In this document: piece by piece, positions 34,350-61,710 of the stretch
Position numbering within the stretch: the stretch's first letter is position 1
Layout: every line of letters begins with the position of its first letter
Assembly (NCBI GenBank): GCA_039194425.1
Contig: JBCCVZ010000018.1
Location: 68,164 to 132,163 of the forward strand
Source: Acidobacteriota bacterium
GTDB taxonomy: Bacteria; Acidobacteriota; Thermoanaerobaculia; Multivoradales; J023
Reading direction: 5' to 3'
Length of the DNA: 64,000 bases
Notes under the pieces: model-generated
What the model was told of the DNA's origin: nothing
What the model saw: only the letters and a program-made list of their open reading frames with translations
The model's database searches: none
Program-made: the position numbers and the translations under genes

Positions 34350-34380
34350 AGGCTGTCTCCCGGCTCGTTCGTCCGAGGGA

Positions 34381-34413
34381 AGCCTACACTCCGTACTCGA
34401 CTACAGAGTCAAG
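34381..34413 (-). promoter_or_regulatory. MerR-type promoter candidate for cueR-copA (TTGACT-20bp-TAGGCT with internal imperfect dyad CTCTGTA-N6-TACGGAG)
   Basis: Read on the minus strand. The long spacer with an operator dyad between -35 and -10 is the hallmark of MerR-regulated promoters. It sits 32 bp upstream of the cueR ATG. Confidence 0.3.
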
Positions 34414-34414
34414 C

Positions 34415-34999: not shown

Positions 35000-35040
35000 G
35001 GCGCGAGCGTATCAAGTCACTCCGACAACCCAAATGGCCC

Positions 35041-35061
35041 TCGCTCTATTTTTAGGAGCGA
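35041..35061. promoter_or_regulatory. inverted repeat TCGCTC-N9-GAGCGA in the TetR/DUF418 divergent intergenic region
   Basis: Short dyad between the divergent starts. This is a weak operator candidate. Confidence 0.2.
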
Positions 35062-35097
35062 CTTGCAATTTGAGATCGAGCCGTGTACCTTCGATCC

Positions 35098-36369
35098 ATG
35101 GACACGACCGCACCGAGCACAACCGCACCGAGCACAACCGCACCGAGCAAGACCGCACCGAGCACAACCACCCAGCGCATCACGAGCCTCGACACCATCC
35201 GCGGTGTCGCCGTCCTCGGCATCTTGACCATGAATGTCGTGTCGTACGGCCTCGGGACGTCGGCCTACTTCAATCTCGACGCCTCGAGCCCCCAGAGCCT
35301 GCTCGATTGGACGGTCGGGGTCGCCGGCGAGATCTTCTTCGACCAGAAGTTCATGGCCCTGTTCTCGATGCTCTTCGGCACCGGCATCGTGATCTTCGCC
35401 GACCGCGCGGAGCACAAGGGACGGCATGCCGTCGGCCTCAGCCTGCGCCGCAACGCCCTCCTGCTCGGTTTCGGCCTGTGTCACGGCGCCTTCTGGGACG
35501 GCGACGTCCTCTTCATCTACGCGGTCTGCGCGCCGGCGGTGCTCGCCCTGCGCCGCCTGCCGACAGGCCTGCTCGTCGCTCTCGGCGTCGGCGTGATGCT
35601 GCTCTCGCCGCTCGGCGCGCTCGCGGCCCAGGCGGCCATCGCTCCGGAGCTCGCGGCCGATCCGTCGACCGGGCTCGGCGTCTACTGGGGGCACGACGGC
35701 CCGATGCTCGACGCCGCCGGACTGTGGCTGATCTCGGACTTCTTTCTCCGCGCCTTCGGCATGATGCTGCTCGGCATCGCCGCCCTGCGCAGTGGACTGC
35801 TCACCGGTGCGCTCGACGACTCTCGATTGCGGCGTTCCGCCGGCTGGAGCCTCGGCCTCGGCCTGCCGCTCGCCGCGCTCGGCGTCGCCGTGCTCGCGGC
35901 GCGAGACTTCGCGCCCGACATCGCGCTCGTCGCTTCGATTCCGAACACCCTGGCGACGATCCCGCTGGCCGTCGCCTACGCCAGCCTGATCATCCTGTGG
36001 ACGAAACGCACGACTCGTCGCGCGCTCGTGGCGAAGATCGACGCGGTCGGCCGCATGGCGCTCACCAACTACCTCGCACAAACCGCTCTCGGACTCCTCG
36101 TGCTGCGCGGCCTCTTCGCGCCGGGCGACCTCGGTCGCACCGCTCTGCTGGTGTTCGCGGTCGGTGTCTGGGTGCTCCAGCTCTGGTGGTCGGAGCGATG
36201 GCTGCGCTCGTTCGCCTACGGCCCACTCGAATGGCTGTGGCGCTGGGCCACCTACGGTCGGAGACCTCGGCTGCGACGCACGGAGCCCTCTGAGACAGCA
36301 CCGCAGCGAGCGGCAGCGGACTCACCCCTCAGCCTGGCGGCGAGTGATCGAGGGCGCGGCACAGACTGA
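35098..36369 (+). CDS. DUF418-family (YeiB-like) polytopic membrane protein
   Basis: About 10 TM helices. Conserved DUF418 elements include SLDTIRGVAVLGIL, MALTNYLAQT and YGPLEWLWRW. The N-terminus has a TAPST repeat. The track start (35083) is a GTG; the ATG is at 35098. Confidence 0.65.
   Translation: MDTTAPSTTAPSTTAPSKTAPSTTTQRITSLDTIRGVAVLGILTMNVVSYGLGTSAYFNLDASSPQSLLDWTVGVAGEIFFDQKFMALFSMLFGTGIVIFADRAEHKGRHAVGLSLRRNALLLGFGLCHGAFWDGDVLFIYAVCAPAVLALRRLPTGLLVALGVGVMLLSPLGALAAQAAIAPELAADPSTGLGVYWGHDGPMLDAAGLWLISDFFLRAFGMMLLGIAALRSGLLTGALDDSRLRRSAGWSLGLGLPLAALGVAVLAARDFAPDIALVASIPNTLATIPLAVAYASLIILWTKRTTRRALVAKIDAVGRMALTNYLAQTALGLLVLRGLFAPGDLGRTALLVFAVGVWVLQLWWSERWLRSFAYGPLEWLWRWATYGRRPRLRRTEPSETAPQRAAADSPLSLAASDRGRGTD
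35107..35166 (+). repeat. 4 x 15-bp perfect/near-perfect tandem repeat (ACCGCACCGAGCACA) encoding (TAPST)n at the 5' end of the DUF418 gene
   Basis: Directly visible: accgcaccgagcaca x2, accgcaccgagcaag, accgcaccgagcaca. Confidence 0.85.
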
Positions 36370-36496
36370 TCCACTGGCCGAGGTGACAGGCGCCGGAATC
36401 AGGATACGCAGTTTCCATCGATTTATTTGCATGCATCGATACAATCGCCGTAAGATTGGTCACGTTCCCTGCAACGTTCACCAACTGGAGATCATC

Positions 36497-37345
36497 ATGC
36501 ACCCCAAGGATCACCTCGGTCGCCTCTTCGGCCTTCTCATCGTGCTCTCGATGTTCGCCGTCCAGCCAGCCTTCGCAGCCGCCGAGACGTGCTTCGAAAT
36601 CTCCGACCGTGCGTTCACGGTCCGCGAATGCCTCGAGCTCGACTCTCCGTCGTCGATCGCCCCGGCGACGGCGCCGATCGCTTCGCCCGTGCTCGCAGCT
36701 GCCGCGCACGAACTGTCGTGGAATCCAGAGCTCCTGTCCCAAGTGAGCCAGCGAGCCGAAGCCTCCGGTGTCTACACGCGAACTGCCTTCCTGGACGGCG
36801 AGGCGATGGAGCTGCGCACCGACCGCTTCAGGGCCTTTCGCGAGGGCTCAGCCGACCATGTGCGCTTCGGCATCGATCTCGAAGGCCAAGAGACGGCGAG
36901 CCTACTGATCGAGACCGTCGAGGACGGGGCCCGGCGCGCTGGCGGCTCGGGAGCACTCGTCGTGGAGTCCGGAGACGGTCGGTCGGTGACTCTCCCGATC
37001 GTCGACGGTGACGTCGTCCCGTCAGCCCGTGGATCCCTCGGAGGGACCAAGAGCAGCTTCTACATGGGCTGCTACATCGACACGCCGGCGTTCGACACCT
37101 ACCAAGCAGACGCCTGCTTCCACCTCGGAACGACGCCTTCGATCGCGGCGTTCAAGGTCTTCTTGCCCTACACGCCGCAGTACGTGGTGTGGAGTCAGCC
37201 CTCCTCCAGCTGCAGCAGCGTCTTCTGCAGCGCGCCGATCTCGCCGGGTCAGACGGTTTACGGCTATGCCTACTGGGTGATCAACAACATCCCGACGGGC
37301 CCAGTTTCAGCGACCGCGCGCTACATCTTCGAGCCGGGCTTCTGA
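36497..37345 (+). CDS. secreted hypothetical protein
   Basis: An ATG at 36497 is preceded by GGAG. The signal peptide is MHPKDHLGRLFGLLIVLSMFAVQPAFAAA. An AT-rich promoter-like region (about 36400-36450, includes TACAAT) lies upstream. Confidence 0.5.
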   Translation: MHPKDHLGRLFGLLIVLSMFAVQPAFAAAETCFEISDRAFTVRECLELDSPSSIAPATAPIASPVLAAAAHELSWNPELLSQVSQRAEASGVYTRTAFLDGEAMELRTDRFRAFREGSADHVRFGIDLEGQETASLLIETVEDGARRAGGSGALVVESGDGRSVTLPIVDGDVVPSARGSLGGTKSSFYMGCYIDTPAFDTYQADACFHLGTTPSIAAFKVFLPYTPQYVVWSQPSSSCSSVFCSAPISPGQTVYGYAYWVINNIPTGPVSATARYIFEPGF

Positions 37346-37374
37346 GCCGTCTCGCGTCGACCGCACGAGGGAGC

Positions 37375-39012
37375 TCAACGCGTCTCTTGAGCCAGATGTC
37401 GGTGGACCGCCGACACGACGACAGAGCCCTCACCGACCGCCGAGGCAACGCGCTTCACCGAGCCCGAGCGGATGTCGCCGACAGCGAAGATGCCGGGGTG
37501 CGACGTGGCGTACTGACCGAGACCCGGGGCGAGATCGGGGCCGGTGCGCACGAAGCCGTGGTCGTCGAGAGCGACGAGGCCGTCGAGCCACGCGGTGTTC
37601 GGCGCCGCGCCGATCATGATGAAGAGAGCCCGGGTCTCGATCTCCTCCTCGCTGACCTTGCCATCGGCCGCGGTCCGGCGCAAAGTGATTCCCTCGAGCC
37701 GGTCCGTGCCGTGCAGCCGACTGACCTCGGTGTGCGTGTGCAGCTCGATCCGCGGGTCACGCTCGATGCGCTCCGACAGGTAGGCCGACATGGTGTCGGC
37801 GAGCCCCGCGCCACGCACCACGACCAGGGTGCAGCGCGCATGCCGCGACAAGAACATCGCCGCCTGACCGGCCGAGTTGCCGCCGCCGACGATCACCGCG
37901 TTCGTCCCGCGGCAGAAGCGTGCTTCGAGCTCCGTCGCCGCGTAGTAGACGCCCTTGCTCTCGAGCTCGGCAAGCCGCTCGAGCGGCAGGCGGCGGTACT
38001 GCACGCCGTTGGCCAGGACGACGGTGCGTCCGCGCACACAGCGCTCGTCGTCGAGCACCACGTGGAACAGGCCGTCCTTCGTCTTCAGCCGCGTGGCCCG
38101 TCGCGGCGCCGTGATGCGTGCGCCGAACTTCACCGCCTGCACCTCGCCGCGGTGCGCCAGCTCAGCGCCCGAGACGCCCCTCGGGAACCCAAGATAGTTC
38201 TCGATCCGCGACGACGTCCCGGCCTGGCCGCCGATCGCGGTGTCTTCGATCGCCAACACGGCGAGCCCCTCGGACGCGGCATAGACCGCCACCGCCAGGC
38301 CCGCGGGACCGGCGCCGACCACCAGCACGTCGAAGACTTGATCGGTGTCGGCCACCAGGTCGAGGCCGAGCGCCGCCGCCAGCTGGCGAGGAGACGGCGC
38401 CGCCAGAACCTCGAGCCGACCGACGACGGCCGCCGGGCCGGCAGCTGGCAGCGTCAGCTCGCCGAGCGAGGCCACGCCCTCGTCGTCGGCGCGATCGATC
38501 CAGCGGTGCGGGATGCGACTGCGCGAGGCGAACTCGCGCAGCCGTAGTGCGCGTGGATCGTCGTCGCCGCCAATCAGAATCAGGCCGCCCTCGTTCCACT
38601 CCATCAGCAGGCGGCGGCGGGCGACGAAGGCCGAGACGATGACATCGCCGACCTCTGGGACAGTCGCCACCAGCTCGCGCAGCGTCGCCTGCGAGACCCG
38701 CAGCACCTCGCTGTCACTGGCGGCGATGCCGGCGAGAAACGTGCCCTGCCCCATCAGCATGCCCAGCTCGCCGACGAACTGGCCGGCCTCGATGCGCACG
38801 ATCACCCGATCGTCACCGCGATCGACGATGTTCAGCGCGCCGCGCTCGATGAAGTAGAAGTCGTATCCCGGCTGGCCGACGTCCCACAGGACCTCGCCCG
38901 CGCCGACCGTGCGCCGCGTGCCGTTCTCCTCGAGAATCTCGAGGACCTCCACATCGAGCGTCGGCCACGCGACGCGCTCGAGGTCGGTCCGCGGTGTCGA
39001 TGTGCGTGTCAT
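37375..39012 (-). CDS. cyclic-nucleotide-binding domain fused to thioredoxin-reductase-like FAD/NAD(P) oxidoreductase
   Basis: The N-terminal cNMP-binding motif is FYFIERGALNIV...FVGELGML. The C-terminal part has two Rossmann motifs, VLVVGAGPAGLAVAVYAA and AVIVGGGNSAGQAAMFL, with the ending GIFAVGDIRSG. Confidence 0.75.
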   Translation of the reverse strand: MTRTSTPRTDLERVAWPTLDVEVLEILEENGTRRTVGAGEVLWDVGQPGYDFYFIERGALNIVDRGDDRVIVRIEAGQFVGELGMLMGQGTFLAGIAASDSEVLRVSQATLRELVATVPEVGDVIVSAFVARRRLLMEWNEGGLILIGGDDDPRALRLREFASRSRIPHRWIDRADDEGVASLGELTLPAAGPAAVVGRLEVLAAPSPRQLAAALGLDLVADTDQVFDVLVVGAGPAGLAVAVYAASEGLAVLAIEDTAIGGQAGTSSRIENYLGFPRGVSGAELAHRGEVQAVKFGARITAPRRATRLKTKDGLFHVVLDDERCVRGRTVVLANGVQYRRLPLERLAELESKGVYYAATELEARFCRGTNAVIVGGGNSAGQAAMFLSRHARCTLVVVRGAGLADTMSAYLSERIERDPRIELHTHTEVSRLHGTDRLEGITLRRTAADGKVSEEEIETRALFIMIGAAPNTAWLDGLVALDDHGFVRTGPDLAPGLGQYATSHPGIFAVGDIRSGSVKRVASAVGEGSVVVSAVHRHLAQETR

Positions 39013-39119
39013 GTGCCGAGTATGCCAGGTCGCACCGACGACCCGGTCGTGAGCGTCACCGCAATCGAAGCGCCCATGTCTCGTCCAGAGAACGCACCGC
39101 GCTCTGATATCGTTCAGCG

Positions 39120-39350
39120 ATGCCGAATCCGTTGAAGCGTGAGATTTCCGTAGCGCTCGATGAAGACCTGATCGCCGAGCTTGAGCGAGGGCCAGGAAGC
39201 CTCTCGAAGCAGGTCAATGAGGCAGTCCGCGAGACCCTCCGACACCAGCGACGCCAGCGGCTACTCGTCGAGTTCTTGGATGATCTTGATCGGCGCCATG
39301 GCCCCGTCGCCGAAGAACGCGTCCAGGCCTTCACCAGGCTCCTCGAATGA
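39120..39350 (+). CDS. type II antitoxin (RHH/VapB-like)
   Basis: 76 aa, translationally coupled (ATGA at 39347-39350) to a PIN-domain gene. The locus has lower GC than its surroundings. Confidence 0.5.
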   Translation: MPNPLKREISVALDEDLIAELERGPGSLSKQVNEAVRETLRHQRRQRLLVEFLDDLDRRHGPVAEERVQAFTRLLE

Positions 39351-39760
39351 CCTCTTGTGTCGTCTTGGATTCCGAGGCGATGTCGGCGCTCTCGGGGCCT
39401 AAAGGAACGCGCAATACCGAGGTGCGAGCTGCGCTTCGGGCAGCAAGTCGGCTCCGCCGAGAAGTGTTGGTGCCAGCGGTCGTGCTCGCCGAACTCTACC
39501 GAGGGCGGGGACACAATCAGCTGGTCGATGCATGCCTCTCTCGTGAGACCGGGATCGCTGCGACTCCGACCGATCGCAAGTTGGCGCGTATCGTCGGCGC
39601 CGTCTTGACAGCTGCAGGGGCCGGTTCGGAAATGCTAGCGGATGCGCACGTCGTCGCGGCAGCAGTCGAGTCCGGCGGTGGCCTGATCCTGACAGGAGAT
39701 CCGAGCGACATGGAGCAGCTGGCGGCACCGTTCCGGTCCGTCTTGGTCGCCAAAATCTGA
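39347..39760 (+). CDS. PIN-domain toxin (VapC-like)
   Basis: 137 aa with the acidic PIN residues in VVLDSEAM, ...LAELYRG..., AHVVAAAVESGG and ILTGDPSDM. Confidence 0.6.
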   Translation: MTSCVVLDSEAMSALSGPKGTRNTEVRAALRAASRLRREVLVPAVVLAELYRGRGHNQLVDACLSRETGIAATPTDRKLARIVGAVLTAAGAGSEMLADAHVVAAAVESGGGLILTGDPSDMEQLAAPFRSVLVAKI

Positions 39761-39893
39761 CTCGCTCACGAAACGATGCCCAGTTCGCGAGCGAGGCGCA
39801 TCCACCAGGATTCGAAGCGAAGGCCCGGACACGGACTGGGCAGCTCGCTGCGCGGCCAACGACCGGACGGCGACGGCGCCCTGACCGTCGGAG

Positions 39894-40895
39894 CTACGAG
39901 GCGTCGGCGGTGACGGCGACCGGCGCCGGTGTCTCCTCCTCGTCGAGGAAACCGTACTGGCGCATCCAGTCGTCGTTGACGAACTTGGTCAGGTAGTTGC
40001 GGATCGAGTCCGGCAGTAGGGCGAGCGCCCTCTTGGTCTCGGGGAAGACCTCGAGCGCCTCGAGCAGACCCCACACCGCCGAACCGGAGCTGCCACCGAC
40101 CAGCAGGCCTTCGTCGCGAATCAGCCGCCGGGCCATGGCGAAGGAGTCGTGGTCGTTGCAGTAGATCCAGTGATCGACCAGGTCGCGGTCGAGCACCTCG
40201 GGGATGAAGTCGTAGCCGATGCCTTCGACCTGGTACGTCTTGATCTCATCGCGGCCGCCGAGCACCGAGCCCTCGGGGTCGATGCCGACGATCTTGATGT
40301 TCGGATTCTTCTCTTTCAGGTAGCGCGCGGTGCCGGTGATCGTTCCACCGGTGCCGGCGGTGATCACCACGAGGTCGAGATCGTCGCCGAAGTCGTCCCA
40401 GATCTCCGGGCCGGTCGAGTGATAGTGCGCGTCCGGATTGTCGGAGTTGTCGTACTGATTGGGGATCGTGGCGTGCGGAATCTCTTGCTCGAGCCGCAGC
40501 GCGACGCCGAACAGGCTTTCCGGGTCGTCGTGTTCGGCCTCGGTCGGCGTACGGATGATCTGGGCACCGAGCGCCTCCATCACCACCTGCTTCTCCTGCG
40601 ACATCTTCTCGGGCATGGTGATGATCAGGCGATAGCCCTTGACCGCCGACACCATCGCCAGTCCGGTCCCGGTGTTGCCGCTGGTCGGCTCGATCAGCGT
40701 CGTCGTGCCCGGCTCGATGACGCCTTCTTGTTCGAGTCCGGCGACCATGCGGCGGGCGATACGGTCCTTGATCGAGCCGCCCGGATTCAGGTACTCGCAT
40801 TTGACGAAGAGCTCGGCCGGCTGCTCGGCACCGATGCGGTTCAGGCGCACCACCGGGGTGCCGCCGATGCAGTCGAGAATGTTGTCGTAGATCAT
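39894..40895 (-). CDS. PLP-dependent cysteine synthase / cystathionine beta-synthase family enzyme
   Basis: The Lys-PLP region is YLNPGGSIKDRIA. Other motifs are TSGNTGTGLAMV, GTGGTITG, and a CBS-like NQYDNSDNPDAHYHSTGPEIW. At 333 aa there are no CBS regulatory domains. Confidence 0.85.
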   Translation of the reverse strand: MIYDNILDCIGGTPVVRLNRIGAEQPAELFVKCEYLNPGGSIKDRIARRMVAGLEQEGVIEPGTTTLIEPTSGNTGTGLAMVSAVKGYRLIITMPEKMSQEKQVVMEALGAQIIRTPTEAEHDDPESLFGVALRLEQEIPHATIPNQYDNSDNPDAHYHSTGPEIWDDFGDDLDLVVITAGTGGTITGTARYLKEKNPNIKIVGIDPEGSVLGGRDEIKTYQVEGIGYDFIPEVLDRDLVDHWIYCNDHDSFAMARRLIRDEGLLVGGSSGSAVWGLLEALEVFPETKRALALLPDSIRNYLTKFVNDDWMRQYGFLDEEETPAPVAVTADAS

Positions 40896-40896
40896 G

Positions 40897-40949
40897 GTCT
40901 CTCCAGCGCTGGTTTCTCCAGCAGGGGCTCTCCAGCAGGGATCTCTCCC
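40897..40949 (-). promoter_or_regulatory. three direct repeats of CTGCTGGAGA(G/A) in the 5' leader of the cysteine-synthase gene
   Basis: On the minus strand the repeats read CCTGCTGGAGAGCC, CCTGCTGGAGAAACC and AGCGCTGGAGAGACC-ATG. The last copy supplies the Shine-Dalgarno sequence. Confidence 0.4.
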
Positions 40950-40964
40950 ACAGAAGGATCTGTC

Positions 40965-43811
40965 TCAGCGCTTCTGCCGCTGTGCGACGGCCGCCATGGC
41001 GCGTTTCGCGGTCGAGCGGACGACCGGGCTGGCCGAGGGATTCTGGGCGATCTTGTCGAGAATCTGGCGCCCCTGGCGGCTGCGCGTCATGTTGCCGATG
41101 TATTTGTTGGCGAATTCTTGCGTGCACTTCGGGTGATTCAGCGCCGCCACCAACGCCTGCTGGCGCGTGAAGAGCTCGGGACGGCGCAAGATCGTCTGCA
41201 AGACGGCCGAGTTGATCTCGCGCAGGCGCAGCACGCGCTCGACGTGCATCAGGCCGATGTGGCGTAGCGTCTCGCTGGCGACCCGCGGATCGGGGTGGGT
41301 GACGAACCAGTAGATGTAGCGCGCCGCGCCGGCGAGGCGCCGCTGAATGGTCAGTGGCAGGCTCTTGATGCCGGCGGGCGGCTTCGACGGCCCCTTGTCG
41401 CCCGACTCGCGGCGCGCCGCCTCGAGCGTCCGGCGCAGGCGCTCGAAGTAGTCGACCTTCAGGCCCTTCGACTGGGCGCGCGCCAGGAAGCGGCGCAAGA
41501 TGTCGTCGAAACGCTCAAAGTAGCCGGTCTCGACCAGGAAGCTGAAGCCGAGGAGCAGCATGATCAGCTTGGTGACGGCGTCGAACTCTTCGCGCGTGCG
41601 GAAGCCTTCGACCGCCTGCTCGATACGCGAGCGGGTGCAGTCGAAGAAGATCTTGCGCGCGTCCTCGCCTTCCTTGCGGCTCATGCGCTCGCCGATGGCG
41701 TAGATGCTGGTGATCGGAATCGACGGATGCGACACGACCTGCCACATCGCCTGCGGGCTGAGCTGCAGCGCCGCGTGATTGCGCACTTCCTGCTCGCCGT
41801 GCCCGAGCACCAGGCAGCGCCAGACGATCTGGAAGTCTTGCTCCGAAGGCCTGAGCCCGCTGCCTTCGAAGCGCTCGGCGAGCGCCGCCGCATCGGGCCG
41901 CTCGGTCGACGCCAGCAGCTCGCGCACGATGTGGAAGCGGCGATGCTCCACCGGCGGCGCCAGCAACACGTCGACAAAGCTGGTGTCGTCGGCACGCTTG
42001 TGGCCGCGGATCGAGAACAGGTCGTCGAGCAAGACGAGGTCGGCGGCCTCCCAGAGCTTCTTCAGCAGCTTGGCGTGGCGCTCCTCGCCGGGGTTGGTCT
42101 GGAGATACGCCAGGACGGCCTTCTTGTGATTGAGCAGCACTTCCGTGAGCGCGGTCTCGATGTCGAGCTCGTCGGCGCGCAGCAGCTGATCGATGGCGCG
42201 CAACACTTCGTCGTCGATTTCGGCGGTCGGCGCCGACGGCTCCTCGGCCCCGCGCGCCAGGCTGAGACAGCGATGCTCGAGCTTCTCGAGGATGACCACG
42301 GAGCGCGAGCGACGACGCGACGCGGCGCGCGCCATCGCCTCGAGACGACGCGAAACGACGAGCGGCGCCTTGGCGTCGGCCACCTGCTCACGCAGCCGCA
42401 GCCACACCGACCCCTCTTCCTTGCGCATCCTGGCGGCCGCCTCGGCGAGCTGGGCGAAGAAGCCCTGCGACCAGTTGTAGTCGATCGAGGCGTAGCTCTG
42501 GCAGAACGAGTTGAGCACCGAGTACATCTCGTCGACGGAGCCCGACAGCGCGTCGGCGGCCTGGATGTCGAGGCCCGACGCGGGGCCCTGGAGAAGGGCC
42601 AGCGCGAGCGAGGTCTGGCGCTGCATCCGCGCGACGGCGTCGTCGAGATCCGACAGGTCGCCGTCGGCGCGCGACGACGGCAGCTTGCACGAGTAGACGG
42701 GCTCGCGCTCCCAGCGCCCCTTGAAGCTGAAATGCGGCCGCAGACGCTCGTCGATGCGCTCGAGCAGGCGCCGCGTGATGGTCAGCTCGCCGGCGTCGGT
42801 ATTGCGCTTCTGCAGGTCGACGACGAAGCGCAGGTCGCTGGCCTGGATCTCCTCGATCGGCAGCTGGAAGACGATCACGGCGTCGTGCGCCGAGGCCCGC
42901 AGGTCGATGTCGCGGCCGAGCGGGTTCTGCTCCGGGTCGAGATTGAAGACCGGCAGGTTGTGCAGCACCTTGAGGCCGGTCATGATCGCGTGGTCGTAGC
43001 TGCGCCGGGCCCAGAACATCACCAGGCCGCCCTGGGAGCCCCACGCGAAGACTTCTCCACCGTAAGTCGCCGCGGTCGATTTCACCAGCTCGAGAAATCC
43101 GGCGGCTAGGCGTTGCAGCAACGCCGAGTCGTCGCCGAGCTCTTCGAGCAGCTTGTCCCAGCGCGCGATCTCAATCGACAGGAACGAGACCTCGTACGCC
43201 TTGCCGGGCTCCATCTTCTTCTCGAAGCGGGTCTGGCCCACCAGCGTCGGGCGCGGCTTGGCCTCGGCCGGTGCCGTCGGCGCCGCGGCGTCGCCCTGCA
43301 GCAGCTGGCGCAGCTCTGCGCCGAGCGTTGCCTCGAGCGACGCAGCGGTATCGAACTCGTGGTAGGCGAAGCGATTCTTCTCCGGCGAATCGAAGCGCCG
43401 ATGAAAGTGGCCGACCCGATCGAAGGCGCGGCTGTCGATCGCGGCCAGGCTCGTCGGCAAGCGCATGCAGCGCAGGAAGACGCAGCGCGGGCGGCGCAGA
43501 GTCTTCCAGTAGTTGTACGCGATCTCGAGATCACGCTCGGTGCACAGGCTCTCGCCTTTGGCGTCCGGCGCGTCGAAGCCCAGCCAGGACAGAGCGACGA
43601 AGAAGTCCTCCGGCTGCACCGGCAGATTGCGGAACGCGACGGTCTCGGGCAGGCTGGTGACCGGCGCCGCGGCCTGGTGCCAGTCGACGATCTCGATCGC
43701 CTCCGCGACACCGCTTCGCACGGATTCGTTGAGCGCAGCGACCACATTCGCCACCGCCTCGCGTTCGGCGGCGAGATCACTCGGAGCTGCCAGGTACAGT
43801 CGCATGGGCAT
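40965..43811 (-). CDS. large multidomain protein: N-terminal DUF4062-like domain, degenerate class-III nucleotide-cyclase-like core, C-terminal alpha-helical (HEAT/ARM-like) repeats
   Basis: Start taken at MPMRLYLAAPSDLAAEREAV (43811). The track's 1180-aa version extends into the divergent CRTAC1 gene. DUF4062 hallmarks are LYLAAPSDLAAEREAV..AL then DFFVALSWLGF...ESLCTERDLEIAY. The cyclase-like segment FLSIEIARW...YGGEVFAWGSQGGLVMFW lacks both metal-binding Asp residues. There is no P-loop. Confidence 0.5.
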   Translation of the reverse strand: MPMRLYLAAPSDLAAEREAVANVVAALNESVRSGVAEAIEIVDWHQAAAPVTSLPETVAFRNLPVQPEDFFVALSWLGFDAPDAKGESLCTERDLEIAYNYWKTLRRPRCVFLRCMRLPTSLAAIDSRAFDRVGHFHRRFDSPEKNRFAYHEFDTAASLEATLGAELRQLLQGDAAAPTAPAEAKPRPTLVGQTRFEKKMEPGKAYEVSFLSIEIARWDKLLEELGDDSALLQRLAAGFLELVKSTAATYGGEVFAWGSQGGLVMFWARRSYDHAIMTGLKVLHNLPVFNLDPEQNPLGRDIDLRASAHDAVIVFQLPIEEIQASDLRFVVDLQKRNTDAGELTITRRLLERIDERLRPHFSFKGRWEREPVYSCKLPSSRADGDLSDLDDAVARMQRQTSLALALLQGPASGLDIQAADALSGSVDEMYSVLNSFCQSYASIDYNWSQGFFAQLAEAAARMRKEEGSVWLRLREQVADAKAPLVVSRRLEAMARAASRRRSRSVVILEKLEHRCLSLARGAEEPSAPTAEIDDEVLRAIDQLLRADELDIETALTEVLLNHKKAVLAYLQTNPGEERHAKLLKKLWEAADLVLLDDLFSIRGHKRADDTSFVDVLLAPPVEHRRFHIVRELLASTERPDAAALAERFEGSGLRPSEQDFQIVWRCLVLGHGEQEVRNHAALQLSPQAMWQVVSHPSIPITSIYAIGERMSRKEGEDARKIFFDCTRSRIEQAVEGFRTREEFDAVTKLIMLLLGFSFLVETGYFERFDDILRRFLARAQSKGLKVDYFERLRRTLEAARRESGDKGPSKPPAGIKSLPLTIQRRLAGAARYIYWFVTHPDPRVASETLRHIGLMHVERVLRLREINSAVLQTILRRPELFTRQQALVAALNHPKCTQEFANKYIGNMTRSRQGRQILDKIAQNPSASPVVRSTAKRAMAAVAQRQKR

Positions 43812-43952
43812 CCTTCGGAGCGGATCGGACGTCGAGAGAAAACGTCGGTGCGAGAGTTCGAGCGAGGGGCTGGCGGGAACGTCCCGCGCGCTGACCGGGA
43901 GTGGCAGATCGTAGCATGCTGCCGGATCCATCGTCTCGGCTACAATCGCGCC

Positions 43953-45788
43953 ATGCGCGCCACGCACTTCGCCCCCAGATCCTTCCTTCGTTCGTCGCTC
44001 ACGACCCTTTCGAGCCCGCACCGAACGGTCGCTTTCTGCCTGTCCATGGGATCTCTGCTCGGCCTCGGCGGAGCTCCGACGAGCCTCGCCGAGCAGACCG
44101 CTCCGTGGTTGCCCGACGTGGCGGCGGAGGTCGGTCTCCGCGTCGACCACGCCAACGGCGCCGACGGCCGGCTGCGCTTCCCGGAGATGATGTCGACCGG
44201 CGCCGCGCTCTTCGACGCCGACGGCGACGGCGACCTCGACGTCTTCCTCACCCAGGGAGACGGTCCCGACCGTCTCTTCCTCAATCGCCTCGAGCGCGGC
44301 TCGCTGCGCTTCGAGGAGGCACCGCGCGCCGGATTCGCCAGCCTCGGCGACGGCGCGGCGGGTGAGGCCATGGGCGTTGCCGCGGGCGATCTCGACGGCG
44401 ACGGAGACGTCGACCTCTTCGTCGCCAACCTCGAGACCGACCACCTGTGGCGCAATCGCGGAGACGGCACCTTTGACGAGGTCGGTGCTCGCTCCGGCGT
44501 CGCGCACGACGGATGGAGCATCGGCGCCACCGTCTTCGACGCCGACCGCGACGGCGCTCTTGATCTCTTCGTCATCGACTACGTCGTCTACGACGCGTCG
44601 ATCGAGTGCTACGACGACTCGAGCCGGCGCAACTACTGCGGCCCCGATGCCTACCCGCCGGCGCCCAACCGCCTGCTGCGCGGACGCGGCGACGGCACCT
44701 TCGAAGACACCTCCGCCGCCGCCGGTCTGGCGACGCCCCCGGGACCGAGCCTGGGGGTCGTCGCCGAGGACCTCGACGACGACGGCCGGCTCGACCTCTA
44801 CGTCGCCAACGACGGGCGCGCCAACCGCCTGTGGCTGGCCGGCGACGACGGCACCTTTCGCGACGAGGCGCTGCTCGCCGGCGCCGCGGTGAATCTAGCC
44901 GGTGCCGCCGAGGCGGGCATGGGTATCGCCGTCGGCGACGTCGACGCGAACGGCACGTTCGACCTGCTGGTCACGCATCTCGACGGCGAAACGCACACTC
45001 TCTACGCGGGCGCCGGCGGTGGCCTGTTCGAAGATCGCACCGTCGCCTGGGGGCTGGCCGCAGCGTCGATGCCGTGGACCTCGTTCGGCACCGGCTTCTT
45101 CGATCTCGAGAACGACGGCGACCTCGATCTCTTCGTCGCCAGCGGCGCGGTCAAGCTGCCGACCCGACTGGCCGACGGCGCCGCGCCGAGCCTCGGCCAG
45201 CCGAATCAGCTCTACCGCAACGACGGCCGTCGCTTCGCCGAAGTCTCCGAGCGGGCGGGAGCGAGCTTCGCGCAGCGCGAGACCTCGCGCGCCGCCGCCT
45301 TCGGCGACGTCGACAACGACGGCGACGTCGACATTCTGCTGGCCAACAATGGCGGACCGATCCGTCTGCTGCGCAACGACGCCGCCAACGGCTCGCGCTG
45401 GATCGGTCTGCGCGTCGTCGAACCGGCGCCGCGGGGCGGCGACGGCGCGGTGCGCGACGCTCTCGGCGCGCGGGTCGAGGTGGCGCTCGACCAGGCCGGC
45501 ACCCGCACGGTGCTGCGCCGCGTCGCCACCGACGGCAGCTACGCCGCCGCCAGCGACCCACGCGTCCTCGTCGGCCTCGGGGACCGCGCGGGATCGACCA
45601 GCGGCGCGATCCGCGTCCGCTGGCCCGACGGCAGCTGGGAGCGCTTCCCGCCGGCACCGGCCGGACGCTACACGACCCTGCGCCGGGGTGCCGGCAGCGC
45701 CGCAACCGACGGCTCCGAAGCGCCCGAGGCGGACGCGGAGCCACGAGGTGAGGCACAAAGCCAGCGCGGCGACGGGGAGCAGCGATGA
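43953..45788 (+). CDS. CRTAC1-family protein (FG-GAP/VCBS repeats + ASPIC/UnbV C-terminal domain)
   Basis: ATG at 43953 (MRATHFAP) with a signal peptide. The repeated FG-GAP motifs are FDADGDGDLDVF, AAGDLDGDGDVDLFVAN, VFDADRDGALDLFV, AEDLDDDGRLDLYVAN and FGDVDNDGDVDILLAN. The C-terminal UnbV_ASPIC-like region is GARVEVALDQAGTRTVLRRVATDGSYAAASDPRVLVGLG...IRVRWPDGSWERF. Confidence 0.8.
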   Translation: MRATHFAPRSFLRSSLTTLSSPHRTVAFCLSMGSLLGLGGAPTSLAEQTAPWLPDVAAEVGLRVDHANGADGRLRFPEMMSTGAALFDADGDGDLDVFLTQGDGPDRLFLNRLERGSLRFEEAPRAGFASLGDGAAGEAMGVAAGDLDGDGDVDLFVANLETDHLWRNRGDGTFDEVGARSGVAHDGWSIGATVFDADRDGALDLFVIDYVVYDASIECYDDSSRRNYCGPDAYPPAPNRLLRGRGDGTFEDTSAAAGLATPPGPSLGVVAEDLDDDGRLDLYVANDGRANRLWLAGDDGTFRDEALLAGAAVNLAGAAEAGMGIAVGDVDANGTFDLLVTHLDGETHTLYAGAGGGLFEDRTVAWGLAAASMPWTSFGTGFFDLENDGDLDLFVASGAVKLPTRLADGAAPSLGQPNQLYRNDGRRFAEVSERAGASFAQRETSRAAAFGDVDNDGDVDILLANNGGPIRLLRNDAANGSRWIGLRVVEPAPRGGDGAVRDALGARVEVALDQAGTRTVLRRVATDGSYAAASDPRVLVGLGDRAGSTSGAIRVRWPDGSWERFPPAPAGRYTTLRRGAGSAATDGSEAPEADAEPRGEAQSQRGDGEQR

Positions 45789-47152
45789 AGCACCTCTGGC
45801 TGCTCGCGGCGCTCGTCTGGGGCTGCGTTTCGCTCGCGGCAGGCGCCCAGGAAATGCAGTCCCCGCCGCCCGGTCGACAGCCGCAGCTCGAGCCGGTGCC
45901 GCGCCCGAGCCTCGAGGCAGTCGAGCCACTGGTCGCCGAAGGCCTCGAGGCCGACCATGCGGCGGTCGATGCCCTCCTTGCGCAGGCCCGCGAGCCCGAG
46001 GGCATCGACGGCCTCGAGCTCGCCGACGCCTTCGTCGAGCTCGCGCTGTCGTACCATGCCCATGCCTTCTACGAGTCTGCGCTCGCCGGCTATCGCAATG
46101 CCGCGCGCCTGCTGCCCGACGACCCGCGCTGGCCTCATGCGATCGGCGTCGCCGAGGCGACGCGAAGCAACCTGGAGGCCGCCACCACCGCCTTTGAGAA
46201 CGCGCTGAGGCTCGATCCGTCGTCGCCGGCGACTCGCTTGCACCTGGCCGACGCGCACCTCGCCGCCGGGCGGCTCGACGACGCCGACGCGCTGGCCCGC
46301 TCGGTGCTCGACGAGCTTCCCGACCAGCCGGCGGCGCTCGACCTGGTCGGCCGCATCGCGCTCGAGCGACGCGAGTTCCAGACCGCCGCCGACGCCTTCG
46401 AGGCCGCGCTCGTGAAGCTGCCGGACGCCAACCGCCTGCACTACCCGCTCGCTCTCGCCTACCGTGGCCTCGGCGACCTCGACGCGGCCCGTCGACACCT
46501 CGAGCTGCGCGGAGGCGTCGGGGTGCGTCCTCCGGATCCGCTCCTCGCCGCGATCGAAGAGCGTGAGAGCGGTGTCCGGGCGATGATCCTGCGCGGCCGA
46601 CGCGCCTTCCGCTACGCGCGCTACGCCGACGCCGCCGCGGCCTTCGCCCGAGCCGTCGACGCCGATCCGACGCATCTCGCGGCACGGGTGAACCTCGGCG
46701 CGTCCCTGATCCAGGCCGGCGATCTCGACGCGGGAGAGGCCGCGCTGCGTGCGGCGCTCGAGCTCGATCCCGACAACGGCGAGACCTGGCACAACCTGGG
46801 CCGAGTCGCCCTGATGCGCGGCAAGCCGACGCGCGCCGCCAATGCTCTACGCCGCGCCGTCGCGCTCGATGGTGACGACTTCGAGAGCCGGCGCCAGCTC
46901 GCCGTCGCGCTGCAGCATCTCGGCGACAAGGCGGGCGCCGCCACGCAGCTCCAGGCCGTCGTTGGCGGCGCACCCCACGACGAGAACGCCCACCTGGCTC
47001 TGGCTCAGCTGCTCCTCGACCTGGGTCGCAACGGCGCCGCCCTTACCGCTCTGCGGCAGGCGGCCGCTGATCTGCCCAACTCGGAGCGCATCGCGGCCGC
47101 CCTCTCGGGCCTCGAGGCCGCGCTCGCCGAGTCCTCGACCGATCCTCAGTGA
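45785..47152 (+). CDS. TPR-repeat protein (secreted)
   Basis: Signal peptide MKHLWLLAALVWGCVSLAAGA, then multiple TPR-like A/L/R-rich repeats. Its start overlaps the CRTAC1 stop in an ATGA, so the two form a pair. Confidence 0.8.
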   Translation: MKHLWLLAALVWGCVSLAAGAQEMQSPPPGRQPQLEPVPRPSLEAVEPLVAEGLEADHAAVDALLAQAREPEGIDGLELADAFVELALSYHAHAFYESALAGYRNAARLLPDDPRWPHAIGVAEATRSNLEAATTAFENALRLDPSSPATRLHLADAHLAAGRLDDADALARSVLDELPDQPAALDLVGRIALERREFQTAADAFEAALVKLPDANRLHYPLALAYRGLGDLDAARRHLELRGGVGVRPPDPLLAAIEERESGVRAMILRGRRAFRYARYADAAAAFARAVDADPTHLAARVNLGASLIQAGDLDAGEAALRAALELDPDNGETWHNLGRVALMRGKPTRAANALRRAVALDGDDFESRRQLAVALQHLGDKAGAATQLQAVVGGAPHDENAHLALAQLLLDLGRNGAALTALRQAAADLPNSERIAAALSGLEAALAESSTDPQ

Positions 47153-47342
47153 GACGAATCGGCTATACTCATTCTCAAGGTCTTTTGTTGAGGTTTTCGT
47201 CTCTCTGACACGTCGTTTTGCCGACCGGCCGTCGGCCCGCTCCCAGCCTGGCACTGCGAGGTCCGCCGTGGACCTCTTGCCGTTCGACTGTCCGACCGCG
47301 GACTGGTCGAACGTTCTCTGCCCGACCGACCAGGAGCGAACC

Positions 47343-48995
47343 ATGGACCGCCGTCTGCTCTGCCTCCTCACCCTTCTCGCCTGCCTGCCCGCGCTCGCCG
47401 CGACGCCGCCCCAGATCACGCCCGCCGCCGACATGACCCGGGTCGACTGGACGATCTCCGAGCGACACGCCGGCGCCACCCTGACCGTCGCGGCGCCCGA
47501 CGGCCGCGTGTTCAGCCAGGTCGCGGCACCGGGCGAGACACTCGCATTCGTGCCCGCCGCGCTCGATTCGCAGCTGCCGGACGGGCGCTACGACTGGCAG
47601 GTCGTCCTCGCCCCGGTGCTCGATGCCGACCAGCAGCGAGACCTCGCCGCCGCGCGCCATCAGCCGGGCCGAGTCCACGCCGTCCAGACCCGAGCGGTGA
47701 GCGGCACCTTCGTGCTCGCTGGCGGCCTCGTCGTCTGGGACGCCGACGCGCTCGAGCCGACCGCGGGCAGCCCCGTTCCCGGCCCGCGGCCCAAGGACGG
47801 AGCGCCGGCGGCCAAGCAGTTCATTCCCGAAGATCTGATCGTCGAAGGCAGCACCTGCATCGGCGTCGACTGTGTCGACGGTGAGACCTTCGGCTTCGAC
47901 ACGCTGCGCCTCGACGAGTCGAATCTCCGTCTGCACTTCGACGACACCAGCACCACAGGCTTCTTTCCGCGCAATGATTGGCGCATCGTCGCCAACGACA
48001 CCGCCAACGGCGGCGGCGAGTTCTGGGCGCTCGAAGACGCCACCGCCAGCGACCAGCCGCTGCGCGTCACCGCCGGCGCCGGCCCCAACGCGCTCTACGT
48101 CGACGCCGCGGGCGATGTCGGCCTCGGCACGGCCACGCCGGTGCTCGAGCTGCACATCGCCGACGGCGACACACCCGGCCTGCGCCTCGAGCAGGACACC
48201 TCGGCCGGCCTCACCGCTCAGAGCTGGGACCTCGCCGGCGACGAGACGAGCCTCTTCGTGCGCGACGTGACCAACGCCTCGTCGCGCCCGCTGCAGATCG
48301 AGGCCGCTGCCGAGGACGACTCAGTCATCGTCGCGAGCGGTCGAGTCGGCCTGTTCACCGACAGCCCCACGGCGGCGCTGCATGTGCGGCGGAGCGACGA
48401 GACCGCGAAGATCCTGGTCGAGGAAACAAACGGTACGGCATCGGCGTCCGCTCGCACTCTGCTCCAGCTCACCAACAACGGCAAGCTCGGCCTCCGAATG
48501 GCCGACACCAACTCCGGCAATACCTGGAAGCTGGAGAACGATCCCAATGCCTTCCTCATCACGCTCGACGGGAGCGGCGCCACCGAATTCGGTCTCACGA
48601 ACTCGGGCAGTGTAGTCATCACCGGCACACTGACCGAGGGTTCCGATATCGCCCGCAAGGACAGTTTCCAGCCGATCGATCCGGGCCAGATCCTCTCCCA
48701 GGTCACGGCCCTACCACTCTCGACCTGGAGCTACATCGACGACCCGTCGGGCGCTCGCCACATCGGACCGATGGCGCAGGACTTCTTCGCGGCGTTCGGC
48801 CTCGGCGGCACCGCCACGGGAATCCAGCCGCGCAATCTGAGCGCGGTGGCGCTCGCGGCGATCCAGGGACTGCACGCCGAGCTCGAGGCCAAGGAGCGAC
48901 GGATCGAAGAGCTCGAGGCCGGGCACAGCCAGCTGGAGGAGCTCGAGCGACGGCTGAGGCAGCTGGAAGCTCACAAGATCACGCCGCAGGACTAG
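47343..48995 (+). CDS. secreted fibre-like protein with C-terminal intramolecular-chaperone (peptidase S74 / endosialidase-chaperone-like) autoproteolytic domain, paralog A
   Basis: Signal peptide MDRRLLCLLTLLACLPALAA. The conserved core FGFDTLRLDESNLRLHFDDTS...NDWRIVAN is shared with paralogs B and C. The C-terminus GTLTEGSDIARKDSFQPIDPGQILSQVTALPLSTWSYIDD...HIGPMAQDFFAAFGLGG...LSAVALAAIQGLHAELEAKERRIEELE carries an S-D-x3-K putative cleavage dyad and a coiled coil. Confidence 0.7.
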   Translation: MDRRLLCLLTLLACLPALAATPPQITPAADMTRVDWTISERHAGATLTVAAPDGRVFSQVAAPGETLAFVPAALDSQLPDGRYDWQVVLAPVLDADQQRDLAAARHQPGRVHAVQTRAVSGTFVLAGGLVVWDADALEPTAGSPVPGPRPKDGAPAAKQFIPEDLIVEGSTCIGVDCVDGETFGFDTLRLDESNLRLHFDDTSTTGFFPRNDWRIVANDTANGGGEFWALEDATASDQPLRVTAGAGPNALYVDAAGDVGLGTATPVLELHIADGDTPGLRLEQDTSAGLTAQSWDLAGDETSLFVRDVTNASSRPLQIEAAAEDDSVIVASGRVGLFTDSPTAALHVRRSDETAKILVEETNGTASASARTLLQLTNNGKLGLRMADTNSGNTWKLENDPNAFLITLDGSGATEFGLTNSGSVVITGTLTEGSDIARKDSFQPIDPGQILSQVTALPLSTWSYIDDPSGARHIGPMAQDFFAAFGLGGTATGIQPRNLSAVALAAIQGLHAELEAKERRIEELEAGHSQLEELERRLRQLEAHKITPQD

Positions 48996-49562
48996 CCAAA
49001 GACGGTGAGCCATTCTGCCTCCTGAGCCCGCTGACTCAGTGAATCAGATAACGAGTCAAGGGCTAAAGCTCTATTTCCACGGAGATCGAGTCTAGAAGCG
49101 AGAAAAACCAGAGATCTTCTCTCGACTTGGCCTTCTTCGGACTCCCAAGGCCACCGCGGCTTCTCGACAGGAACCGTATGGGCTTGACGCGGCGACGATC
49201 TCCGCCTATGATCTGAGGGTCTCTTCCCTTCCTCTTGTCCCATCAGCCAGTTGATACGCAACCAACGGACTCCTTCCGCTCGGTGCTGGTGCATCTCGAC
49301 ACTCTCGAGACACTGGCGATCTCGCAAGATCCCTGAACCGTACGCCTGGAGATCCGACGCTTTCAACGCCGACTGCTGCGACAGACCGCCGTCGGCCCGA
49401 ACCGGACCGAACTGCTTGATCTCTTCTCCGGCCCACTTCCCGGCCGGGATCCTTCAGAGGGGTACCCAACTCGTCCGCCGGCGCCGTGCCCCGGACGAAC
49501 TGAGTACCGTGGGGCCTCCCACCCCACTCACCCATCTCTCCATCACTGGAGGTCAGTCACCA

Positions 49563-51254
49563 ATGCGTTCCTACCTCACCAGCAAGCCCGCGATTCTCAT
49601 CGCTCTTCTCGCCCTCGTCCTCTCCGGCAGCTCCTTCGCCGCCACCCAGCCGAGCCTCGACATGCTCGGTGGCAGCAGCCAGCTCGTGTGGTACGTCAAC
49701 GGCCCGGCCGACGGCGCGACCCTCGTCATCTCAGTGCCCGACGGCCGCATGCTCGAGGCCGTCGCCGGCCCCGGCGAGCCGCTCTCGTTCTCGCCGTTCG
49801 ATCTCGACGCCGCCCTGCCCGACGGTGTCTACACCTGGGAAATCGTCGTCACGCCGAAGCTGAGCTCGCAGGAGCGCCAGCTGGCCGAGGCCGAGCGCGC
49901 CGCGGGCCTCAGCCCGGCAGTGCAGCTCGACCCCGCCTCGGGCGCGTTCTCGATCCTCGGCGGTTCTATCGTCTGGGACGACGCCACCATCGTCGAGGGT
50001 GACTCCGACGGCGGCTCGTCAGTCGGTGGCAAGGTCGCCGCCGGCGCCGAGGGCCTCGAGGGTCTGCCCACCAAGCAGTTCATCAGCAGCGACCTCACGG
50101 TCCACTTCAGCGCTTGCATCGGCGGTGACTGCGCGACGTCCGAGAGCTACGGTAGCGACACGCTCCGCCTGAAGGAAAACAACCTGCGCATCCACTTCGA
50201 CGACACCAGCAACTCGGCGTCGTTCCCGAACAACGACTGGCGCATCACCGCTAACAGCTCGGACAACGGCGCCGCCAGCTTCCTTTCGATTCAGGACGCC
50301 ACCGCGGGTACCACGCCCTTCTACGTCGGCGCCGGCGCCGGCAACAACGCTCTCTACGTCGAGAACAACACGGGCGACATCGGCGTCGGCACCGCGGCGC
50401 CGGTGGTCGAGGTCCATGTCGCCGACGGCGACACGCCGACGATGCGCCTTGAGCAGAACGGCTCCTCCGGCTTCGCGACGCAGACCTGGGACCTCGCCGG
50501 CAACGAGACGAACTTCTTCGTCCGCAACGTGACCAACGGCTCGCGCCTGCCGTTCCGCATTTTCCCGACCTCTGAAGACGACGCGGTGGTTCTCCGCAAC
50601 AGCGGCGTCGGCATCTTCACCGACAACCCGTCGGCCTCGCTGCACATTCGTCGCACTGACGAAACGGCGAAGATCTTTGTCGAAGAAGCGAACGGCACGG
50701 CCAGCGCCAACGCTCGGACCCTGATGCAGCTCACCAACAACGGCAAGCTCGACTTCCGACTGTCCGACACCAACTCGGGCAACACCTGGAAGTTCGAGAA
50801 CGATCCGAACGCCTTCCTCATTTCGCTCGACGGCAGCGGCGCGACAGAGTTCGGCCTCACCAACGCAGGCAGCCTCGTGATCACTGGCACGCTCACCGAA
50901 GGGTCCGACGTCAACACGAAGGAGAACTTCGAAGCGATCGAGCCGGCGCAGATTCTCGCCGAGGTCCTCGAGCTGCCGATCACCACCTGGAGCTACATCA
51001 ACGACGAGCCGACCGTGCGCCACATCGGTCCGATGGCCCAGGACTTCCACGCCGCCTTCGGCTTCGGCGGCACGGAGACCGGCATTCAGCCGCGCAACCT
51101 CAGCGCCGTCGCACTGGCCGCGATCCAGGGCCTTGACGCCGACGTCAAGGCGACGCTGACCGCGGAGCTTGAGAAGAAGCAGCAGAAGATCGACGAGCTC
51201 GAGTCTCGTCTGGCTGCTCTCGAGGCGCTGATCCAGGCGCAGGCCGCTCAGTAA
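49563..51254 (+). CDS. secreted fibre-like protein with C-terminal S74-like chaperone domain, paralog B
   Basis: ATG at 49563 preceded by GGAGG, with signal peptide MRSYLTSKPAILIALLALVLSGSSFAA. It shares the core of paralogs A and C. The C-terminus GTLTEGSDVNTKENFEAIEP...HIGPMAQDFHAAFGFGGTETGIQPRNLSAVALAAIQGL is followed by a coiled coil. Confidence 0.7.
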   Translation: MRSYLTSKPAILIALLALVLSGSSFAATQPSLDMLGGSSQLVWYVNGPADGATLVISVPDGRMLEAVAGPGEPLSFSPFDLDAALPDGVYTWEIVVTPKLSSQERQLAEAERAAGLSPAVQLDPASGAFSILGGSIVWDDATIVEGDSDGGSSVGGKVAAGAEGLEGLPTKQFISSDLTVHFSACIGGDCATSESYGSDTLRLKENNLRIHFDDTSNSASFPNNDWRITANSSDNGAASFLSIQDATAGTTPFYVGAGAGNNALYVENNTGDIGVGTAAPVVEVHVADGDTPTMRLEQNGSSGFATQTWDLAGNETNFFVRNVTNGSRLPFRIFPTSEDDAVVLRNSGVGIFTDNPSASLHIRRTDETAKIFVEEANGTASANARTLMQLTNNGKLDFRLSDTNSGNTWKFENDPNAFLISLDGSGATEFGLTNAGSLVITGTLTEGSDVNTKENFEAIEPAQILAEVLELPITTWSYINDEPTVRHIGPMAQDFHAAFGFGGTETGIQPRNLSAVALAAIQGLDADVKATLTAELEKKQQKIDELESRLAALEALIQAQAAQ

Positions 51255-51265
51255 GTAAGTCTCCC

Positions 51266-53166: not shown

Positions 53167-53198
53167 TCGTCGCCCGCACCGACTGAACGTTCGAGGAG

Positions 53199-61700: not shown

Positions 61701-61710
61701 CGGGTCCTGA

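Follow-up and report, generated by a model that had tools for sequence, protein, structure and literature searches.

What might a protein do that joins a relative of NAD+-degrading immune effectors to a cyclase fold in one chain, with the catalytic residues of both substituted? The question is raised by a gene at 40965..43811 (minus strand) of the 64,000-nt stretch of an Acidobacteriota bacterium genome that we analyzed (the window; GenBank assembly GCA_039194425.1, contig JBCCVZ010000018.1, positions 68,164 to 132,163). The initial annotation, made from the sequence letters, had described a protein of about 950 amino acids (aa) with a DUF4062 N-terminus, an inactive cyclase-like domain and a helical solenoid, a combination that it did not recognize. 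We found that the window protein belongs, over its full length, to a family not yet described, in which a DUF4062 (NIR) domain, a class III nucleotidyl cyclase fold and a helical module follow one another. Literature searches found no description of this architecture, the 2026 DUF4062 preprints do not mention a cyclase (bioRxiv 10.64898/2026.06.25.731849, 10.64898/2026.09.04.749371, 10.64898/2026.05.01.722283), PADLOC 2.0 does not model the architecture at full length, and Pfam does not cover the window protein.

The gene is real and under selection. Its open reading frame (ORF) runs on the minus strand from an ATG at 43811 to a stop codon at 40965 and encodes 948 aa, in keeping with the size first given for it. 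The mechanical ORF reaches upstream to 44507, an extension made of antisense sequence in a region of ~70% GC; long spurious ORFs are expected here because the window is itself ~70% GC. Two in-frame ATGs, at 43811 and 43805, lie two codons apart, and AAGGA stands 5 nt before the second. The second ATG is probably the true start, giving a protein of 946 aa: it has the better Shine-Dalgarno spacing, the N-termini of homologues read MRLFLA, and an NCBI protein from an Acidobacteriota metagenome-assembled genome (MAG), P0001, is modeled at 946 aa and is 100% identical to the window protein. At E≤1e-134, a search of 5.8 billion proteins returned 79 homologues, which are mostly full length (935-1010 aa, 44-64% identity over 98-100% of the query). 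Their named sources are Acidobacteriota, Thermoanaerobaculia and Holophagales MAGs, and the others are unclassified ‘bacterium’ MAGs. In a 44-sequence alignment of the window clade (A1), from which all clade residue counts below are taken, about 130 columns are invariant, and these columns together with the intact full-length ORFs rule out a decaying pseudogene. Four close homologues are annotated as much longer proteins (P0019, 1498 aa; P0076, 1195 aa; P0069, 1080 aa; P0027, 1032 aa) with no additional Pfam domain, and are probably over-extended ORF calls in high-GC DNA, not fusions.

An AlphaFold2 model built with A1 (mean pLDDT 86.5) divides the protein into an alpha/beta region at 1-172, a disordered stretch at 174-192, a second alpha/beta region at 195-378 and an all-alpha region at 385-948. 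The resulting features, all on the minus strand, begin with an N-terminal DUF4062/NIR-like domain of putative TIR-like NADase fold (aa 1-172, 43296..43811), placed by profile homology and modeled in isolation at pLDDT 93.3. A disordered Ala/Pro-rich linker follows (aa 173-194, 43230..43295), with pLDDT below 50 at 174-192 and a family mean pairwise identity of 22%. It leads into a class III nucleotidyl cyclase (CHD/PycC-like) fold with substituted catalytic residues (aa 195-378, 42678..43229). Next comes a region of four long helices (385-406, 416-439, 449-477 and 484-519 in the model) that looks like a coiled coil or helical bundle and has weak matches to designed antiparallel coiled coils (aa 379-540, 42192..42677). 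The last feature is a C-terminal all-alpha module (aa 541-948, 40968..42191), defined by the model and independently mobile elsewhere. The C-terminal region had been taken for a HEAT/ARM-like solenoid; it is all-alpha, with about 26 helices, but no Pfam model or solved HEAT/ARM structure specifically matches it, and the C-terminal module has neither a Pfam match nor a specific PDB match.

The motifs LYLAAPSDLAAEREAV, DFFVALSWLGF, CTERDLEIAY, FLSIEI and GSQGG are all present in the window protein, which has no Walker A motif, no GxGxxG motif and no transmembrane segment. A STAND NTPase was ruled out, as the initial call of a missing P-loop had implied: there is no [AG]xxxxGK[ST] motif and no NACHT, NB-ARC or AAA Pfam match. 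For a GGDEF diguanylate cyclase, the GGDEF fold was not the best match and the GG[DE]EF motif is absent. Pfam gave no match for the window protein at E≤10, and neither DUF4062 nor a cyclase family was found at E≤1 in any of the 44 close homologues. An NCBIfam scan of the window protein (E=0.075) and PDB sequence searches with the N-domain profile and with the full-length profile returned noise. The single PADLOC match of the window protein was the defence candidate PDC-S60 (E=1.6e-6), over residues 3-172 only.

The N-domain was placed by searching 1.84 billion representatives exhaustively with HMMER, using a family profile made from A1. The profile matched 4,661 proteins at E≤1e-3, of which 1,314 reached E≤1e-10 and 138 reached E≤1e-30. 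The matched proteins fall into four classes: full-length relatives, down to about 22-35% identity (class a); proteins with a match confined to profile positions 1-190 (class b); proteins with a different N-terminus whose match extends from about position 195 to the profile end (class c); and proteins whose match starts only at about position 450-540 and extends to the profile end (class d). Class b consists of STAND proteins with NACHT, NB-ARC, AAA_16 or nSTAND domains, often together with TPR, FGE-sulfatase or TIR, and profile positions 1-190 match their DUF4062-bearing N-termini at E of about 1e-30 to 1e-35. Pfam DUF4062 is present in 14 of 23 class b relatives; among the ten class b proteins for which DUF4062 coordinates are listed, seven are positive, all on the residues that match the profile. 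A joint alignment with class b proteins is co-linear over the whole 175-aa domain. Further, the full-length relative P0226, 34% identical to the window protein end to end (BLASTP, E=3e-176), passes the gathering score of Pfam DUF4062 (PF13271; 25.8 bits against a cut-off of 24.7, residues 11-113). On the strength of the class b matches, the co-linear alignment and the P0226 link, we assign the N-domain as a divergent DUF4062 domain by transitive homology; this bears out the initial call, with Pfam itself silent on the window protein.

The isolated N-domain model has the order beta1-alphaA-beta2-alphaB-beta3-alphaC-beta4-alphaD-beta5-alphaE, and Foldseek against the PDB gave weak matches (E≥4e-4, TM about 0.4) to generic flavodoxin-like folds, among them the CMP N-glycosidases MilB and BlsM and a TIR-STING. 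The DUF4062 assignment therefore rests on sequence and not on fold. Similar matches, to a CMP hydrolase and TIR domains, have been obtained with DUF4062 before (bioRxiv 10.64898/2026.09.04.749371). A word-indexed search with the N-domain profile recovered three fragments only and no DUF4062 protein, so that the exhaustive HMMER search was needed.

DUF4062 is a TIR-like NADase that acts in anti-phage defence in Swarozyc, Evangelion, Avs2, Vulcan and Vesta and is also found in human TEP1, and its catalytic Glu is essential (TEP1 E1008, PsAvs2 E108, Vulcan E98, Vesta E103, and Eva01 E87 in an ‘E-Y’ pair) (bioRxiv 10.64898/2026.06.25.731849, 10.64898/2026.09.04.749371, 10.64898/2026.05.01.722283). 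The ~170-aa N-terminus of the window protein is homologous throughout to that of these effectors, with which it shares the beta1 ‘FxAxP.D..ER’, the ‘D.F.G..W..F’ motif, the ‘[ST]-E-x-x-F-x-L-A-Y’ helix and an N-terminal placement in a large multidomain protein. Unlike them, it scores below any Pfam DUF4062 match, its partner is a cyclase fold instead of a STAND NTPase or a short AUX region, and the catalytic Glu has become Asp in the window protein and Asn in most of the clade. STAND-linked and full-length relatives read SGTEEEF at this site, with the last Glu and the E-F pair invariant. The window protein reads CTERDLE, so that the catalytic position is D94 (nt 43530-43532), followed by L95, which is not aromatic; the catalytic Glu and aromatic (‘E-Y/F’) that DUF4062 requires are replaced by D94-L95. 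In A1 the residue at position 94 is Asn 23 times, Asp 15 times, Glu 5 times and Ala once. Among full-length relatives, those about 30-35% identical still have both the NADase catalytic Glu and the Asp/Asp/Asn of the cyclase domain, and we refer to these as active-looking. The substituted Glu, the active-looking relatives and the swaps with immune effector domains described below all go beyond the initial annotation.

These residues bear on whether the window protein could still work as a single-protein abortive-infection system, with phage sensing by the C-terminal part, the cyclase-like domain as a dimerization or regulatory switch only, and NAD+ hydrolysis by the N-domain with Asp94 in the place of Glu. 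Position 94 is acidic in the window protein, and is D or E in 20 of the 44 clade members; the architecture is homologous end to end with that of the active-looking relatives; the N-domain matches PDC-S60; and DUF4062 proteins are proven NADase defence effectors, as the same three preprints report. However, the protein is fully conserved despite Asn (23 of 44) or Ala (1 of 44) at position 94, Leu replaces the aromatic of the ‘E-Y’ pair in the window protein, and published Glu-to-Gln or Glu-to-Ala mutants lose defence. The N-domain is also the least conserved folded domain in the window clade, and the gene keeps a fixed position beside housekeeping amino-acid genes across clades, whereas defence genes are normally patchy and mobile. 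Taken with these points, a working abortive-infection system seems to us quite unlikely.

The class III cyclase fold proposed for the middle of the protein was recovered by structure comparison: the top 50 Foldseek matches of the central domain in the PDB were all class III adenylyl/guanylyl cyclases (E 7e-6, target-normalized TM 0.7-0.8), placing it in the CHD fold. A profile of the relatives’ central domains (A6) matched class III cyclases in the PDB (3mr7, E=4.3e-10; Ma1120, E=4e-9; CyaB, E=2e-8), and in these alignments two Asp and an Asn fall on the canonical metal-binding and transition-state residues. Three relatives matched PADLOC PycC, with E down to 5e-8; the window protein did not. 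Several full-length relatives carry the JGI label ‘class 3 adenylate cyclase’.

Where relatives read FLSVDIvgHS, WxGDGG and INfVxHLE, the window protein reads FLSIEIARWD, WGSQGG and DLRFVVDLQ. The first metal-binding Asp corresponds to E214 (nt 43170-43172), with E in 38 of the 44 clade sequences, and the second to Q260 (nt 43032-43034), where the clade has G, N, K, Q, S and others but D in none of the 44. The substrate Lys is A256 in the window protein (S in 28 and R in 11 of the 44), the transition-state Asn is R328 (mostly D in the 44), and the Arg/His position is D332 (variable in the 44). The window protein has neither the metal-binding Asp pair nor the Lys that binds substrate, and it also lacks the Asn and Arg of the transition state. 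Both Asp are indeed substituted, as first claimed, but the register of that claim was shifted: the first falls on E214 and not on S212, and the second on the Q of GSQGG. Active-looking relatives keep the Asn, with Ser or another residue at the Lys position and His for Arg.

Within the window clade, mean pairwise identity is 62% in the cyclase-like domain, 61% in the C-terminal module and 45% in the N-domain, and in the active-looking relatives it is the N-domain that is best conserved (37%, against 33% and 29% for the other domains). The cyclase-like domain of the clade has invariant polar residues of its own (E207, D273, H274, K281, H284, D292, N296, H309 and D310), and Y206 is invariant in the clade as well. 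The conservation pattern points to a retained or new function, and not to decay. One such function would be enzymatic: the domain might still catalyze, with altered chemistry, through the newly invariant E207, E253, D273, H274, K281, H284, D292, N296, H309 and D310. No other part of the protein is as conserved as the central domain (62-68% identity), and many of the invariant polar residues there are not invariant in active-looking relatives, which would fit such a change. But each of the five canonical class III positions has been lost or varies, and we know of no class III cyclase fold that catalyzes without the Asp pair, and we regard altered chemistry as very improbable.

In fold the central domain resembles class III and Pycsar PycC cyclases, from which it differs in lacking the metal-binding Asp pair, Lys, Asn and Arg. 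Pycsar also has a separate effector gene with a domain that binds cyclic nucleotide monophosphates (cNMP), and no conserved gene of this kind accompanies the cyclase-like gene here. Non-catalytic cyclase-like domains that can be set beside it are the ATP-binding domain of a P. aeruginosa regulator (PDB 6yii), whose STAND/LuxR context differs from that of the window protein, and the C2 domain of mammalian adenylyl cyclase (1ab8), whose C1/C2 pseudo-heterodimer context likewise differs.

The remaining classes of relative show that the modules of this family are exchanged. In class c, DUF4062 is replaced by SIR2_2 (P0101), Metallophos (P0109 and P0123) or TIR_2 (P0107), and in class d the C-terminal module is fused to a caspase with HEAT repeats (P0147) or to a Ser/Thr kinase (P0163 and P0205). 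By PADLOC, the swapped domains resemble ThsA/Dsr2-type SIR2, defence caspases and PD-T4-6-type kinases. A constant body that bears exchangeable heads, whether NADase, phosphoesterase or protease, is the signature of NLR-like immune sensors. The module swapping is an immune-sensor-like pattern in which a cyclase fold stands in place of the central P-loop NTPase. As in the STAND/NLR-like sensors Avs and bNACHT, there is a swappable N-terminal effector (here DUF4062, SIR2, TIR, Metallophos or caspase), a central switch and a large C-terminal helical sensor; unlike in Avs and bNACHT, the central place is taken by a cyclase-fold domain and there is no P-loop NTPase. Among active-looking relatives, P0086 adjoins BrnT/BrnA and MNT-type toxin-antitoxin genes, and P0091 (Thermoanaerobaculia) has a PIN toxin and a MalT-like regulator nearby. 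The neighborhoods of P0092 and P0109 were uninformative owing to short contigs, and most other active-looking contigs are likewise short.

At the P0073 locus (L003-L005, 12855..15468), which belongs to the most divergent clade, a Metallophos gene starts 4 nt past the homologue, with an AAA_15/AAA_21 ATPase and DUF4276 pair after it. Adjacency here, together with the N-terminal fusions in P0109 and P0123, suggests that Metallophos is functionally linked to the cyclase and helical module.

Directly downstream of the target gene, after a 69-nt gap, lies a gene for a cystathionine-beta-synthase-like or cysteine synthase pyridoxal phosphate enzyme (PALP; 39894..40895, minus strand). The gap holds no terminator-like site, and the two genes are probably co-transcribed, judging from their arrangement. 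Neither a sigma-70-like promoter nor an intrinsic terminator was matched within the scanned 39500..44400, and no Rfam family reached its gathering score anywhere in the window (1..64000). PALP directly follows the homologue in 16 of 24 loci, all 16 from clades at ≥50% identity and with gaps of 35-120 nt. Neither the clade at ≤46% identity (L003, L018, L023 and L024) nor L009 shows this linkage. Upstream, the neighbor is threonine synthase in the ~50% identity clade, and a divergent FG-GAP/ASPIC and TPR pair in the ~62% identity clade; in the clade at ≤46% identity PALP, threonine synthase and the FG-GAP/TPR neighbors are all absent. In the window, the pair comprises a CRTAC1-like FG-GAP/ASPIC protein (~44160..45788, plus strand) and a TPR protein (45785..47152, plus strand), both divergent from the target gene as first noted; the pair is conserved beside the homologue only in the ~62% identity clade (L006, L007, L013 and L016). 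All 18 of 18 loci in GTDB representative genomes are from Acidobacteriota or Thermoanaerobaculia MAGs or are unclassified, and none is assigned to another phylum. Vertical inheritance is the best explanation for the taxonomy and the conserved PALP neighbor of the window clade.

One reading of this synteny is that the protein would regulate sulfur and amino-acid metabolism, or serve it as a scaffold, together with the probably co-transcribed PALP enzyme, for example as a nucleotide or metabolite sensor that controls PALP. The PALP gene stays 35-120 nt downstream in 16 loci despite differing upstream neighbors, and the short gap in the window lacks a terminator-like site. Yet the linkage fails at ≤46% identity and in L009, no fusion of the homologue and PALP was found (the longer variants have no extra Pfam domain), and related genomes can keep gene order without a functional link. 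We know of no precedent for such a regulator, and consider this explanation unlikely. A Rosetta-stone fusion to PALP was sought among the longer proteins P0019, P0076, P0069 and P0027, which have no extra Pfam domain, and was not found. A second candidate partner lies two genes downstream of the target and encodes a 545-aa protein with a cNMP-binding domain (residues 34-116) and a thioredoxin-reductase-like FAD/NAD(P) oxidoreductase (227-529) (37375..39012, minus strand). A Pycsar-like pairing with this gene was ruled out, as it lies beside none of the 24 homologous loci.

For the family as a whole we propose a plan of N-terminal effector, class III (PycC-like) cyclase, helical bundle and C-terminal all-alpha module. 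Class III cyclase domains are obligate dimers in known enzymes. The active-looking relatives probably follow an NLR- or Avs-like logic. The C-terminal helical module would serve as sensor of a trigger, and the cyclase domain as the part that switches or assembles the protein and/or produces a cyclic nucleotide; the N-terminal effector would then act, as a DUF4062/NIR NADase or, in swapped versions, as SIR2, TIR or Metallophos. Because canonical catalytic residues are conserved in neither of its enzyme domains, the window clade would be expected to carry out neither NAD+ depletion nor cNMP synthesis. The window protein would instead be a non-catalytic, dimeric scaffold or ligand sensor, whose remodeled and highly conserved cyclase-like pocket would, with the C-terminal module, bind a nucleotide, metabolite or partner protein, and it would be expressed together with the downstream cysteine-synthase-like gene. 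Beyond what we observed of domain identities, residue substitutions, module swapping and synteny, we infer the loss of activity, the dimerization, the scaffold or sensor role and the link to the neighboring gene. A non-catalytic role is favored because conservation of the canonical catalytic residues has been lost and yet purifying selection is strong and the chromosomal position fixed. We give an even chance to the reading of the window protein as a non-catalytic dimeric scaffold or ligand sensor, the domesticated descendant of an immune-type protein, and the ‘signalling scaffold or nucleotide-binding sensor’ first proposed for it is still the most plausible interpretation.

Several points weigh against a non-catalytic scaffold or sensor of immune descent. 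We assigned the putative catalytic Glu by aligning sequences and by motifs from the literature; Glu persists at position 94 in five clade members, and the window protein keeps acidic residues at D94 and E214, which may permit residual or altered catalysis. An immune role for the active-looking relatives is drawn from domain swapping and one neighborhood, and the adjacency of PALP may simply be conserved gene order among related genomes. In the C-terminal module, no ligand-binding fold is recognizable.

We also raise, more tentatively and leaning somewhat against it, a wider proposal: that the family is a new class of single-chain bacterial immune sensor in which a cyclase domain has the central role, as switch or signal generator, that the STAND NTPase has elsewhere. 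Its effectors would be NIR, SIR2, TIR or Metallophos, with caspase or kinase joined to the C-terminal module alone, and the window clade would have been domesticated into a core, syntenic double pseudoenzyme (pseudo-NADase and pseudo-cyclase) with a new role, housekeeping or regulatory, in Acidobacteriota.

Elsewhere in the window, two adjacent proteins of ~700 aa (46842..48995 and 49251..51254, plus strand) have a C-terminal Peptidase_S74 as their sole Pfam match. Peptidase_S74 is the intramolecular chaperone of endosialidase and tail-fibre proteins, and the two are probably paralogous secreted or fibre-like proteins. At 31483..33900 (minus strand) lies an ordinary-looking 805-aa P-type heavy-metal ATPase with two N-terminal HMBD motifs.

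It was only in 2026 that DUF4062/NIR was identified as a TIR-like NADase, both in human TEP1 and in bacterial defence, and Pycsar-type class III cyclases form a separate arm of nucleotide-based immunity; this locus joins both in one polypeptide. As candidates that can be tested, the active-looking relatives may represent a new defence architecture, with a cyclase fold in place of the NLR nucleotide switch. The window clade offers a natural experiment on the putative loss of both catalytic centers under continued strong selection, and may exemplify both the re-use of an immune protein for cell physiology and the evolution of a pseudoenzyme in two domains at once. If the wider proposal is true, the window clade would be a rare documented domestication of an immune protein.

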